Program-made: the position numbers and the translations under genes
The notes under the pieces: generated by a model
Database searches by the model: none
What the model saw: the letters and a program-made list of their open reading frames with translations, nothing else
What the model was told of the DNA's origin: nothing
Shown here: positions 9,834 to 46,297 of the stretch, piece by piece
Position numbering within the stretch: position 1 is the stretch's first letter
Layout of the letters: every line of letters begins with the position of its first letter
DNA from: an uncultured Helicobacter sp.
Lineage (GTDB): Bacteria; Campylobacterota; Campylobacteria; Campylobacterales; Helicobacteraceae
Assembly: GCF_944325775.1 (NCBI RefSeq)
Contig: NZ_CALVBL010000001.1
Strand: one strand, 5' to 3'
Length of the DNA stretch: 64,000 nucleotides

Positions 9834-9920
9834 ATTTTTACAAACACAATATGTGTTTTTATAAATTTACATATATTTTTTGTGAAATGTTACATTTTTA
9901 CAAACACAATATGTGTTTTT
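9834..9920. promoter_or_regulatory. Two exact 27-bp direct repeats (60 bp apart), each containing the near-palindrome AAACACAATATGTGTTT; putative Met operator
   Basis: ATTTTTACAAACACAATATGTGTTTTT at 9834-9860 and 9894-9920, upstream of metY. A candidate -10 TATGAT (minus strand, 9823-9828) lies 13 nt from the first core. Confidence 0.75.
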
Positions 9921-10022
9921 GATTTTTAGCATTTCTTAAAGAGTGCTAAAACTCGCCGATTTTCCCTTGTGATAGTGCTTTTCTAGAATCTAGATTCTAA
10001 ATAATTGTATTGAAAGGTATAT

Positions 10023-10640
10023 ATGCGTTTGATACTCGGTTGTGTGCTTATGTGTATGATGATTGTGCAAGCAGTCGATTTCACGAGCGCGCCTCCCCCT
10101 TCTACCAAAGATCTTAAAATCCCCAAAGAAAACTTTGGCGTGCAGGGCAGTGGATTTTCCACATCAGGCTATTCCGAGTTAGAACTCAATAACAAAACCT
10201 TCCAAGAAAATGAGATAGACGCCAGCCTGTGGCGTGCTGGGGCTGAATACCGCGTGTATTATGAGTTTCACCCATTCAAACATACCTCTATCAATCTCTT
10301 CTTTGGCACTAGTATTGAGATCACACAATACCGCACAGGTGGAAAGACCAAAGCCTACAACGATGGAATCTACAACGAAGACCACTCCTATAATTGGGGC
10401 GGGAGATTCTATTATGGTAACCGCGTCAATAAACTGGGCGTTACCATTAGCATTAATCACTTTCACAAGCTCCACATTATCTTACGGCAGGCGTTTTTGG
10501 ACGATTTTAACCTCGCAGCTGTGGGCTTGCCATTTGCCAACACACTTTGGGCAAACTCCCAAAATGCACAGCTCTCAAGTAGTGGTGCGCGCGCACTGCA
10601 AAACACGCAGATTCTGATTACTTATATTCTTGCTTTTTAA
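10023..10640 (+). CDS. Putative outer-membrane beta-barrel protein
   Basis: Signal peptide, aromatic/Gly-rich alternating strands, and C-terminal ITYILAF signature. Confidence 0.55.
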   Translation: MRLILGCVLMCMMIVQAVDFTSAPPPSTKDLKIPKENFGVQGSGFSTSGYSELELNNKTFQENEIDASLWRAGAEYRVYYEFHPFKHTSINLFFGTSIEITQYRTGGKTKAYNDGIYNEDHSYNWGGRFYYGNRVNKLGVTISINHFHKLHIILRQAFLDDFNLAAVGLPFANTLWANSQNAQLSSSGARALQNTQILITYILAF

Positions 10641-11119
10641 TTGCTGTATTTTTCTTGAAACGAGAGGATTCTCTGCCCAGCGGCATTGAGACTGTATTCT
10701 CTATCATAGCCCTCTTTGATACGCTCACCAAAGGCTTCAAGCAAATGCTTAAACATCGGATCATCAAATATATCAATCACCACGCCATAGAGCTGAATAT
10801 TTTGCAGCACGATTTCAAAGATCTTGGTGCGATCTTGGAGGTAGTATTTCTCCTCATCTTTGTATTTGAGTAGGCGCATTGCGATTCTATCGAGGATTCT
10901 AGGCAGGGCATAGGTGTTTTGTTTGAGATATTTTTTGAGCACATCATGGGTGCGCGAGAGCAAAATATCCACTTTTGCCTTATCCGCATAAATCACACAA
11001 GGCAAAATCGCAATAAGCCTATCAATATCCGCACCCAGTGATCGTGTCTCCCATTTGATCACAAAGCGTTTGAGAGGACTGAAGTGAAAGTCTGAAAGCT
11101 TTAACTTAGATGTTTCCAT
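10637..11119 (-). CDS. Hypothetical protein
   Basis: Open frame from ATG 11119 (METSKLKLSDF); overlaps the stop of the upstream gene. Confidence 0.65.
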   Translation of the reverse strand: METSKLKLSDFHFSPLKRFVIKWETRSLGADIDRLIAILPCVIYADKAKVDILLSRTHDVLKKYLKQNTYALPRILDRIAMRLLKYKDEEKYYLQDRTKIFEIVLQNIQLYGVVIDIFDDPMFKHLLEAFGERIKEGYDREYSLNAAGQRILSFQEKYSN

Positions 11120-11816
11120 AGCTCTGTGCTTTTTTAGGTTGTGGGTCTTTTGAATCTTGAGGAGCACTCTGCTCTAGATCTCGCATTTGGCAAGTATCCT
11201 GCGAGAGATCACTCTTAGCAATCGCCACTTCTAGGATCGCTTCAAAATCCACCCCATGCAGTCTTAGCATAGGCACGCTAAATACAGAATCCCCATACAA
11301 AACCCGCTCACCCTTGTGATAGCTCACAACGCGCAAAATCATCTTATCATCTATGCGTCCTGCTTCCTCACCTGCCAGTCCCTTGAGGGCATTGCCGATG
11401 ATGTATCGCCCGCTACGTTCATACACCGCTACATTATCTGCACACACGAAAAAACGTCTTGTCTTAGCACTAGATTGAGAATCTATAGTAACAGGGGCGG
11501 CTTGAGCCTCTGTCTCTCGTGCATTGTGAGAATCTACAGATTCTCTTGGCTCGGATGCTGGAGTAGCTCGCACACTAGAATCTTCGCTAGATTTTGGACT
11601 AGATTCGGATTCGGTAGATTCTTGTGCAGATGAGATAAGATCCTGCGCACTTGGCATGGGAGATTCTATTTGAGGTTTTGCACCAGATTCACCAACTAAC
11701 TCCGTAGATGTATGATCGGGCTTAGATTCAGCTTTGTTAGATTCACTAGGCTGGCTAAGCACAAACACCGCGCACACCACTGCCACCACTACGATACCAA
11801 ATATTGCTTGCTTCAT
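11106..11816 (-). CDS. Hypothetical membrane-anchored/exported protein with Ser/Glu-rich linker
   Basis: Hydrophobic N-terminus MKQAIFGIVVVAVVCAVFVLS; RBS AAAGGGAGG; directly after hemB. Confidence 0.7.
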   Translation of the reverse strand: MKQAIFGIVVVAVVCAVFVLSQPSESNKAESKPDHTSTELVGESGAKPQIESPMPSAQDLISSAQESTESESSPKSSEDSSVRATPASEPRESVDSHNARETEAQAAPVTIDSQSSAKTRRFFVCADNVAVYERSGRYIIGNALKGLAGEEAGRIDDKMILRVVSYHKGERVLYGDSVFSVPMLRLHGVDFEAILEVAIAKSDLSQDTCQMRDLEQSAPQDSKDPQPKKAQSYGNI

Positions 11817-11828
11817 ACACACCTCCCT

Positions 11829-44213: not shown

Positions 44214-44219
44214 ACACAT

Positions 44220-45560
44220 CTACAAAATATAGCGCGCTAAATCCACATTTTCCACAAGCTCGCCGAGCTTTTGACGCACCATATCAGCGGTGATGATCAC
44301 CTCTTTGCCGATGTATTCCTCACACTCAAAACTGATGTCTTCCAACACGCGCTCAATCGTCGTGTGCAGTCGTCGCGCTCCGATATCCTCGGTTTTTTCA
44401 TTAGCATTAAACGAAAGGCGTGCTAGCTCCCTGATCGCCTCATCTTCAAATTCTAGTGTGATGTCTTCAGTCTGGAGCAAAAGCTGGTATTGGCGGATAA
44501 TAGAGCTTTTGACTTGAGTGAGAATCTTATACAGACTCTCTTGAGTAAGATTCTCTAGCTCCACGCGCAGTGGAAACCGCCCCTGCAACTCTGGGATTAG
44601 ATCACTAGGTTTGCTGAAGTGGAACGCCCCCGCTGCGATAAAGAGGATATAATCTGTGCGAATCTGCCCGTATTTGGTATTTACCACGCTTCCCTCCACG
44701 ATAGGGAGCAAATCCCTCTGCACGCCCTCTTTGCTCGGATCTTGGCGCGAGCCCTCCTTGCCGCTTACTGCGATTTTATCAATCTCATCGATAAAAATCA
44801 CGCCCTTTTGCTCGGCGCGCCTTAAGCCCTCTTGTTTAATCGCTTCATAATCCAAGCATTCCTTCGTCGCCTCGTATAAAAGCGCGTCTTTGGCTTCTTT
44901 CACGCTCATTTCACGCTTTTGGCTTTGCTCTTGTGAGCTTAAGACTTTGATGATGGACTCTTGGACTTTAAGCACTTCTGGGGGGAGAGTTTCGTCATTG
45001 AGTGCAGTGTTTTTGCTCACTTCTATTTCGATGAGGAGTGAATCCACCTCGCCATCACGCACCTTTTGTTTCATCTTGGCGAAACTCTGCTCATACTCCA
45101 TCTTTTTTTGCTCGCTCACGCTATGGGGTAGTGGCGGGAGGATCTTGCGCGTGATTTTATTGAGGATATACTCTTGTATGGCTTCTTGTTGCTCTTGCTT
45201 ATATTCTTTCTCGACGAGATTCACACTTGCTAGGACCAAATCCCGCACCATAGATTCTACATCGCGCCCTACAAAGCCTACCTCTGTGTATTTGCTCGCT
45301 TCGACCTTGATAAATGGCAAACCCATAATCTTTGCCATGCGGCGCGCGATTTCGGTCTTGCCCACGCCTGTAGAGCCTATCATCAAAATATTTTTTGGCG
45401 TGATTTCTTCTTGCACTTCTTTTTCTAGTTTCATTCTGCGGTAGCGGTTGCGCAAGGCGATGGCTACGCATTTTTTGGCTTCTTGTTGCCCGATGATATA
45501 GTCGTCTAGGTATGCGACAATCTGCCGTGGGGTCATATTTTCTTTGTCTAGATTTTGCAT
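44220..45560 (-). CDS. hslU: ATP-dependent protease ATPase subunit HslU
   Basis: MTPRQIV...YIIGQ, GSTGVGKT, FIDEIDK, PELQGRFP, and IGARRLHT. Confidence 0.98.
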   Translation of the reverse strand: MQNLDKENMTPRQIVAYLDDYIIGQQEAKKCVAIALRNRYRRMKLEKEVQEEITPKNILMIGSTGVGKTEIARRMAKIMGLPFIKVEASKYTEVGFVGRDVESMVRDLVLASVNLVEKEYKQEQQEAIQEYILNKITRKILPPLPHSVSEQKKMEYEQSFAKMKQKVRDGEVDSLLIEIEVSKNTALNDETLPPEVLKVQESIIKVLSSQEQSQKREMSVKEAKDALLYEATKECLDYEAIKQEGLRRAEQKGVIFIDEIDKIAVSGKEGSRQDPSKEGVQRDLLPIVEGSVVNTKYGQIRTDYILFIAAGAFHFSKPSDLIPELQGRFPLRVELENLTQESLYKILTQVKSSIIRQYQLLLQTEDITLEFEDEAIRELARLSFNANEKTEDIGARRLHTTIERVLEDISFECEEYIGKEVIITADMVRQKLGELVENVDLARYIL

Positions 45561-46105
45561 TATGCTAACTCCAAGATTTTGATATTTGTGTTGGTGTAGA
45601 TACATAGCTCACCTGCGATTTTTAGTGATTGCTCCACAAGCATTTTGGGCTCAATCTCTGCGAGTCTATCCAGCGCTCTAGCTGCGCTAAGTGCGTAGTT
45701 CCCACCGCTGCCAATCGCTGCGATCTTGCCATCTTCTGGCTCCACCACATCGCCTGTGCCACTAAGAATAAAAATATGCTCTTTATTGAGCACAATCATC
45801 ATTGCTTCAAGCTTACGCAGGTATTTATCACTCCGCCATTGCTTGCTAAACTCCAGTACTGAGCGCACCAACTCGCCCTTTTTGCCTTCTAAAATTCGTT
45901 CAAACATATCAAAGAGACTAAATGCATCAGCCGTACTTCCTGCAAAACCGCTTAAGATTTTGTCATTATAGAGTGTGCGGATTTTAGTCGCGTTGCCTTT
46001 AAGCACGCAGTTTCCAAAGGTTACCTGCCCATCACCACCAATGATGGCGTATTGTTTGCCTTTGTATTCGCCTTTATAGCCTAGGATCGTTGTTGCTTCA
46101 AACAT
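45560..46105 (-). CDS. hslV: ATP-dependent protease subunit HslV
   Basis: [19 protein letters not shown], and [10 protein letters not shown]. Confidence 0.98.
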
Positions 46106-46239
46106 AAGTTTTCCTTCAAAATTTTGTGCGATTCTAAAAATCTTAATCATCGCCACACACGAACGATAGCAAGTTCATGAAATAAACTTACATCAAAATT
46201 ATAGAATCTCTTTTGTTAATCGCTTATTACAATTTTTAT

Positions 46240-46297
46240 AAACACAATATGTGTGCGTAGATTTTTTTGCAAAAAATTAAAAACACAATACATATTT
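46240..46297. promoter_or_regulatory. Two putative Met operator copies upstream of metK
   Basis: AAACACAATATGTGTGC (46240-46256, 15/17) and AAACACAATACATATTT (46281-46297, 13/17). The second lies 14 nt upstream of TATTAT (46312-46317). Confidence 0.7.

Follow-up and report, generated by a model that had tools for sequence, protein, structure and literature searches.

A Conserved Palindrome Upstream of Methionine Genes in Enterohepatic Helicobacter: Candidate Operator of an Undescribed Methionine Regulon

We analyzed a 64,000-nucleotide stretch of an uncultured Helicobacter genome (contig NZ_CALVBL010000001.1, here called the window), in which three methionine loci share a 17-bp palindrome, AAACACA-ATA-TGTGTTT, in their upstream regions. 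By family scan, the first locus consists of metY, encoding O-acetylhomoserine sulfhydrylase (8499-9791, minus strand), and metA, encoding homoserine O-acyltransferase (7594-8478, minus strand), with rplU and rpmA coming after the metY-metA pair (7594..9791). The second is the methionine ABC importer operon metN-metI-metQ-metQ' (22808..26256, minus strand; metN at about 25264-26256), and the third is metK, encoding S-adenosylmethionine (SAM) synthetase (46357-47517, plus strand). The window has a G+C content of 43.5% and is contained almost word for word in chicken-gut metagenomes. Identity is 96% between MetN and its counterpart in Candidatus Helicobacter avicola, 94% between MetY and that of an uncultured Helicobacter metagenome-assembled genome (MAG), and 95% between MetK and a cluster carrying the name of H. 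fennelliae. These similarities point to a chicken-gut Helicobacter near Ca. H. avicola as the source organism.

Two exact copies of the palindrome (AAACACAATATGTGTTT) lie upstream of metY-metA, a gene-proximal one at 9842-9858 and a distal one at 9902-9918, and each sits within one unit of a perfect 27-bp direct repeat (9834-9860 and 9894-9920; spacing, 60 nt). The dyad at the metY-proximal copy extends further, reaching arms of 17 nt (9832-9848 and 9852-9868). The copy upstream of metN (26324-26340; AAATACAATATGTGTTT) has one mismatch. Upstream of metK are two copies 41 nt apart, distal at 46240-46256 with two mismatches (AAACACAATATGTGTGC) and proximal at 46281-46297 with three (AAACACAATACATATTT), the latter being the weakest of the set. 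An earlier note, made from the letters of the window alone, had described the same five sites and the 27-bp repeats; all are where it placed them, and only its score for the proximal metK copy needs correction, from 13 to 14 matching positions of 17.

The window contains far more copies than its composition predicts. With up to three mismatches on both strands, the 17-mer gave eight matches, against 0.31 expected from 100 dinucleotide shuffles of the window (standard deviation, 0.60; maximum, 2). A symmetrized position weight matrix (PWM) trained solely on the sites of other species gave six matches at a threshold of 12 bits, against 0.13 expected, scoring the five intergenic sites highest and adding a near-palindrome within a gene, at 3906-3922 (AAATACAAAATGTATTT). 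The claim that the motif occurs at no other intergenic site of the window was thus borne out. The intragenic sequence is a near-perfect 7-3-7 palindrome of uncertain status: it scores 23.9 of 28.1 bits by the cross-species PWM and carries the flank GATTTTTT as at real sites, and it falls within an APH-like kinase open reading frame (ORF; 3750-5243, minus strand), with the next gene about 150 nt downstream. Either a chance match or an internal site would explain it.

At each locus, one copy stands at a fixed distance from a candidate -10 box. The boxes that the earlier note had given, 13 to 14 nt from one copy per locus, are present as described: TATGAT for metY-metA (9823..9828, minus strand), 13 nt from the proximal operator; TAGAAT for metNIQ (26304..26309, minus strand), 14 nt from the operator and kept in six species; and TATTAT for metK (46312..46317, plus strand), 14 nt from the proximal operator. 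All three boxes are predicted from sequence. The same arrangement holds for 24 promoters of five types (metY, metN, an ntaA-type operon, metK, and a metE remnant) from at least 14 Helicobacter genomes, where the gene-proximal site ends 11 to 14 nt before a -10-like hexamer and 44 to 74 nt before the start codon. Counted from the predicted -10 position, the proximal operator covers roughly -25 to -42. Public metatranscriptome contigs (X25, X26, and X31) and RNA contigs of "organism A" cover metK, and we considered them as evidence for transcription start sites; we set them aside, as they come from diverged relatives and are assembled and directionless.

Comparison across species shows the palindrome being retained at these positions. 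Every metY homologue fetched (76 to 90% protein identity) has the element at the same upstream place, as in L001 and L003 (AAACACA(T/C)(A/G)TTGTGTTT), L212 (AAATACATATTGTATTT), Helicobacter sp. CaF467b (L004; ATATACAATATGTATTT), and CP021886.1 (L005; AGATACAATATGTATTT). The two-site layout of the window's metY promoter recurs in L157, with a spacing of 60 nt, and in L166 and CP014991.1 (L007), each with 62 nt between copies. MetN of the H. anseris group is only about 60% identical to that of the window, and in the metN promoter alignment hardly any column besides the motif and TAGAAT is invariant; the metY promoter alignment gives the same pattern, with motif and -10 conserved. The phylogenetic footprinting that the earlier note had suggested therefore supports it at the metN and metY promoters, with the motif kept where the flanks have diverged. 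Upstream of metK, H. fennelliae has AAACACAATATATGTTT at the corresponding position, 12 nt before TATATT. The core that emerges across species is A(C/T)ACA-WWW-TGT(G/A)T, with A/T-rich symmetric flanks.

Exact-match scanning showed which other genes carry the element. We scanned one genome per species, 185,579 species in all, for the exact 19-mer AAAYACAATATGTGTTTTT and obtained 59 matches, 14 of them in Helicobacter or Campylobacterales. All but one of these 14 lie just upstream of methionine or sulfur operons: metNIQ (five loci), metY-metA (three loci, four sites), an N-terminal remnant of metE (one), and an ntaA-type operon (four genomes). The fourteenth (L140) falls inside a coding region. 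At none of the 45 matches outside Helicobacter/Campylobacterales is there a Met gene. Scanning metagenomes for the C variant returned 18 matches: one, a Helicobacter metY promoter, is Met linked, and the 17 non-Helicobacter matches are not. Because the matches outside Helicobacter are not Met linked, the association is lineage specific rather than a by-product of base composition. An exact match in Lonepinella (L135), about 230 nt before lrp, looked suggestive but was rejected as chance, as it falls within the beginning of the coding sequence of a divergent membrane-protein gene.

The ntaA-type operon encodes an NtaA/DmoA-family flavin mononucleotide-dependent monooxygenase, a RimK-like ATP-grasp protein, and an SfnG-like monooxygenase, enzymes of organosulfur scavenging. 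Its operator lies 14 nt upstream of TATAAT in four genomes (L138, L141, L144, and L150) and in the window's own species, where the site came to light among contigs of high-coverage chicken-gut metagenomes matched to the metY operator (run X4, contig of 21,232 nt). In Ca. H. avicola, the operon is divergent from torC/torA-like S/N-oxide reductase genes. The same contig search gave one further locus of the window's species, with two copies 52 nt apart (run X4, contig of 21,452 nt, about 12,904-12,992) in a metY-like arrangement (site, GTAAAAATTTGTG, TAATAAT); its 30-nt flanks match no fetched locus. Contigs matched to the metN and metK operators yielded no additional loci. The metE site (L154) precedes an ORF (176-1654) in which a 41-residue MetE N terminus (Meth_synt_1) is in frame with a complete HP_OMP_2 outer membrane protein. 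We did not accept it as an intact metE target, given the 41 residues of MetE, and counted it as a remnant promoter; the fusion is either what is left of a metE gene or a chimera introduced when that MAG was assembled.

Several observations place the element in DNA rather than RNA. All sites are upstream of the predicted -10 and so should lie outside the transcripts of these promoters, and the leaders deduced from these positions, about 25 to 45 nt, are too short for a riboswitch. Rfam at the gathering threshold found only two tRNAs and no riboswitch in the whole window, and at E values of up to 1 it returned only noise in the three intergenic regions. As an RNA hairpin, the palindrome would reach only -4.6 to -5.1 kcal/mol. 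The asymmetric center (ATA/TAT) also changes direction with respect to the gene, both from metK to the other operons and among metY orthologues: it reads TAT at most metY, metN, ntaA, and metE promoters and ATA at metK and at the metY promoters of L004 and L005. A symmetric dimer would tolerate such a flip. The earlier note had argued for a dimeric protein from the shared plus orientation of the sites; this orientation is real in the window, but it flips relative to the gene between species and is not conserved, and agreement of three loci would arise by chance about one time in four. That argument is weak, and its conclusion, a DNA-binding protein and no riboswitch, stands on the evidence above.

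The palindrome is, in our judgment, quite likely the operator of a Met/SAM-responsive repressor that acts as a dimer or higher oligomer on a methionine regulon of enterohepatic Helicobacter. The core of this proposal, a shared DNA operator of a previously unrecognized Met regulon, was that of the earlier note, and it is strengthened by the window statistics, the position in 24 promoters, the footprint, and the further Met/sulfur operons. A sequence-specific regulator bound to the palindrome would control methionine synthesis (metY-metA, and metE where present), import (metNIQ), SAM formation (metK), and the organosulfur monooxygenase operon. Bound at about -25 to -42, it would cover DNA that sigma region 4 contacts and would most likely block RNA polymerase, and repression by occlusion is the simplest reading. 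The gene for such a regulator would, as the earlier note supposed, lie outside the window. Repression would occur when Met/SAM is plentiful, making the system functionally like MetJ or McbR. The MetJ and McbR regulons are controlled by SAM or S-adenosylhomocysteine (SAH), and because the gene set found here mirrors them, the signal would likely be methionine, SAM, or a metabolite related to them. Second copies 41, 52, 60, or 62 nt away, together with T-tract flanks and the extended dyad, hint at cooperative or higher-order binding.

Six points weigh against this proposal. The candidate -10 boxes, from which the operator positions are counted, are guesses from sequence, and the promoter scanner is unsuited to these promoters: a sigma-70 scanner needing a -35 hexamer found nothing at them and is uninformative for this lineage. 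A site centered near -34 would also be compatible with activation in a lineage with no -35 consensus. Many of the 24 promoters are orthologous and not independent, leaving about five to six independent operon types. The scan pattern forced the exact core and the T flanks, and this biases the flank consensus. The metK copies, with two to three mismatches, are the weakest sites, and H. fennelliae is the sole other species shown to keep one. Finally, no transcription factor gene lies within 4 to 10 kb of any of about 30 sites examined in the window and in Helicobacter loci.

The bound protein might instead be an Lrp/AsnC-type (feast/famine) or other oligomeric DNA-wrapping regulator, with the T-tract flanks and second sites forming one nucleoprotein complex. 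Sites of Lrp/AsnC proteins are 13-bp palindromes of the form abcde-WWW-edcba, often in arrays; the core ACACA-ATA-TGTGT has this shape, which serves as a lead only. The 17-nt arms at metY, the conserved T-tracts, and the second sites would fit such a complex. However, an E. coli Lrp query (tblastn) detected no Lrp/AsnC homologue across the window and the fetched Helicobacter loci, many promoters have a single site, and the flanks may be plain AT-rich promoter DNA. We regard this explanation as unlikely.

Less probable still is that the same operator and regulon are served by an activator, which would stand in for the missing -35 contact when Met or sulfur runs short, as MetR or CysB/Cbl do elsewhere. 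The site is exactly where a -35 element would be, Campylobacterota promoters are not known to have a -35 consensus, and the sulfur-scavenging monooxygenases among the targets are of a kind typically found in sulfur starvation regulons under an activator. Yet the center near -34 is neither -41.5 nor -61.5, metK is included as is typical of SAM-repressed regulons (MetJ, McbR, and S-box), and neither a T-N11-A nor a MetR-type box is present.

A structural or epigenetic promoter element, such as a methyltransferase target or a cruciform whose state is set by SAM supply, would need no protein operator, and CAC-N5-GTG-like symmetry and a SAM-centered regulon would suit it; we consider it very improbable, as a restriction-modification target would be found genome-wide rather than limited to the -35 region of Met genes, and conservation across many species with different restriction-modification sets is not to be expected. 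Chance similarity or a functionless repeat or mobile leftover, which an AT-rich genome and the local 27-bp duplication behind the two metY copies might suggest, is effectively refuted by the comparative data, given the eight window matches against 0.31 expected, the fixed -10 distance in 24 promoters, the retention of the motif where flanks diverged, and a Met association that is exclusive in Helicobacter and absent elsewhere.

No box of a known methionine regulator occurs at the three promoters. The three intergenic regions contain no MetJ metbox AGACGTCT with up to one mismatch and no tandem pair with up to four mismatches, and the three promoters contain no T-N11-A box and no streptococcal MetR/MtaR box. 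With up to one mismatch, the McbR motif TAGAC-N6-GTCTA had no match at the three promoters, and the same was true of the MetR palindrome ATGAA-N5-TTCAT (PMC4239095). SahR/SamR sites are palindromes of 20 to 24 bp with ATC-N10-GAT (PMC4239095); this pattern is absent at the operator positions, and its sole copy, at 26407, is in the pstS promoter. The statement in the earlier note that the motif is unlike the MetJ box and the LysR pattern T-N11-A therefore holds at the three promoters, and a tblastn search with an E. coli MetJ query gave nothing significant in the window and 73 loci.

Searches by gene neighborhood were no more productive. Transcription factors of the window are limited to a PhoB-type response regulator beside pst and an hxlR-like remnant. 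Across the window and about 30 Helicobacter loci, the only factors seen (PhoB beside pst, HspR, HrcA, and the hxlR-like remnant) are unrelated to the sites, so we rejected adjacency as a route to the regulator. Our literature searches agree with the earlier note that no Met regulator has been described in Helicobacter, and a search for the motif string returned nothing relevant. Large comparative surveys of proteobacterial regulons omitted Epsilonproteobacteria, for their lack of orthologues of the transcription factors studied (PMC5343134). C. jejuni was stated in 2025 to lack MetJ, MetR, SahR, SamR, and SAM/SAH riboswitches, and small RNAs are the only regulators known for its core Met pathway (PMC11774046). 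In C. jejuni, a mutant of HeuR, a protein with PAS and helix-turn-helix domains, overexpresses metE, metF, a NlpA/MetQ-like gene, and the metC cluster, and direct action of HeuR on met genes is stated to be unknown (PMC5111405).

The element has clear taxonomic limits. It is absent from the metK upstream regions of H. pylori, H. enhydrae, and Wolinella succinogenes and from the metY-metA upstream regions of Campylobacter avium and Campylobacter CP020867.1, and it is doubtful at metY of H. saguini. Its predicted spread to Campylobacter thus fails at two Campylobacter metY promoters. From these genomes, its range would be many enterohepatic Helicobacter, outside the H. pylori, Wolinella, and Campylobacter genomes examined. 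Carriers of the motif include CP014991.1, CP021886.1, H. fennelliae, H. equorum, H. anseris, Ca. H. avicola, and MIT 00-7814. Upstream of metY-metA, both Campylobacter genomes have leader ORFs (C. avium, L006, 5839-5925; CP020867.1, L211, 3818-3898) with Met-rich ends (MFISVNFASNSFSVVLSPMMYMHTFECA and MVLTFSSVFNLICFFSMSAMMHALRA), after which come a GC hairpin and T-runs. This suggests a candidate ribosome-mediated methionine attenuator, a form of control differing from the palindrome and not known to have been described.

It is possible, rather than probable, that the regulator is not orthologous to MetJ, MetR, SahR/SamR, McbR, or MtaR/CmbR, belongs perhaps to a family never tied to Met/SAM sensing, forms a higher-order complex on the extended T-tract-flanked palindrome, and replaced the leader-peptide attenuation apparently used by Campylobacter at metY-metA. 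If so, Campylobacterota would gain their first transcription factor dedicated to the core methionine/SAM pathway.

The methionine loci have other features. After the distal metY operator is a block, GTAAAAA(A)GTAACAT (9880-9893; columns 34-52 of the metY alignment), which persists in promoters of the H. equorum type even though their distal operator has decayed; a similar sequence, AAATGTTACT, stands beside the ntaA operator. TGTTAC(A/T) in this block may resemble the HP1021 box. Behind metI are two tandem metQ paralogues (22808-24486), an arrangement identical in MAG bin61 (L156). The conserved N terminus of metN (26254-26256) has no ATG, GTG, or TTG; the start is apparently ATC, 6 nt after AAGGGG, and the corresponding position is ATT in Ca. 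H. avicola, ATC in MAG bin61, and GTG or TTG in the H. anseris group, which suggests a noncanonical and conserved start codon. The metN operator shares its intergenic region with a candidate pho box, a direct repeat TTTACAA-ATAT-TTTACAA of 11-bp periodicity at 26390-26407, immediately before the predicted pstS promoter (26414-26443); it resembles a site for the PhoB/PhoR pair encoded downstream (30306-32634). Behind metK is a 638-bp gap (47518-48155) with a 51-codon ORF (47802-47957, minus strand) that resembles the N terminus of an HxlR-type regulator (FAYILKIIGGKYKMGILDAL) and has no Pfam match. It is divergent from a 207-amino-acid ORF (48156-48779), nitroreductase-like by eye, and is probably a decayed regulator gene.

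Met/SAM regulation in Campylobacterota is an acknowledged gap, and a Met regulon with this operator is so far undescribed in the literature we searched. The palindrome provides a concrete conserved operator and a defined regulon for enterohepatic Helicobacter, including the human pathogen H. fennelliae. Two members, the ntaA-type operon and the metE promoter remnant, are added here, and an uncharacterized NtaA/SfnG-type monooxygenase operon is thereby linked to sulfur and methionine supply. The operator also makes the regulator directly isolable with a 27-bp DNA bait. The reach of the finding is limited, as the motif is not upstream of H. pylori metK or of metY in two Campylobacter species.

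The NrdR box is a 16-bp palindrome, ACAC-N8-GTGT, upstream of nrd genes, whereas here ACAC-N5-GTGT is upstream of met genes. SAM riboswitches, such as the S-box, control the same gene set in other phyla, but the elements described here have no Rfam match, lie upstream of the -10, and leave leaders too short for a riboswitch. Of the proteins of Campylobacterota, HeuR alone has so far been connected with met gene expression; its literature gave no binding motif, and the two Campylobacter metY promoters have no palindrome. The ArsR-type SahR/SamR proteins likewise act on a palindrome upstream of met and SAM genes, in Proteobacteria without MetJ (PMC4239095), but their ATC-N10-GAT pattern is not at these sites. 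In regulon breadth, the closest system is that of McbR, whose palindromic operator likewise controls metY, metK, and sulfonate/organosulfur monooxygenase genes together; its box is absent here, and the lineage is unrelated. McbR of Corynebacterium glutamicum is a TetR-type, SAH-responsive protein with the operator TAGAC-N6-GTCTA. The MetJ regulon of Enterobacteria, under a SAM-corepressed ribbon-helix-helix protein, is almost identical in gene content: its operators likewise overlap the promoters of Met biosynthesis genes, metNIQ, and metK, and often comprise several adjacent sites. They are built of tandem 8-mers, in contrast to the 7-3-7 palindrome found here, where metboxes are absent. As for the palindromic operators of dimeric transcription factors in general, the Helicobacter element combines dyad symmetry, a fixed place relative to the core promoter, and conservation at orthologous linked genes.

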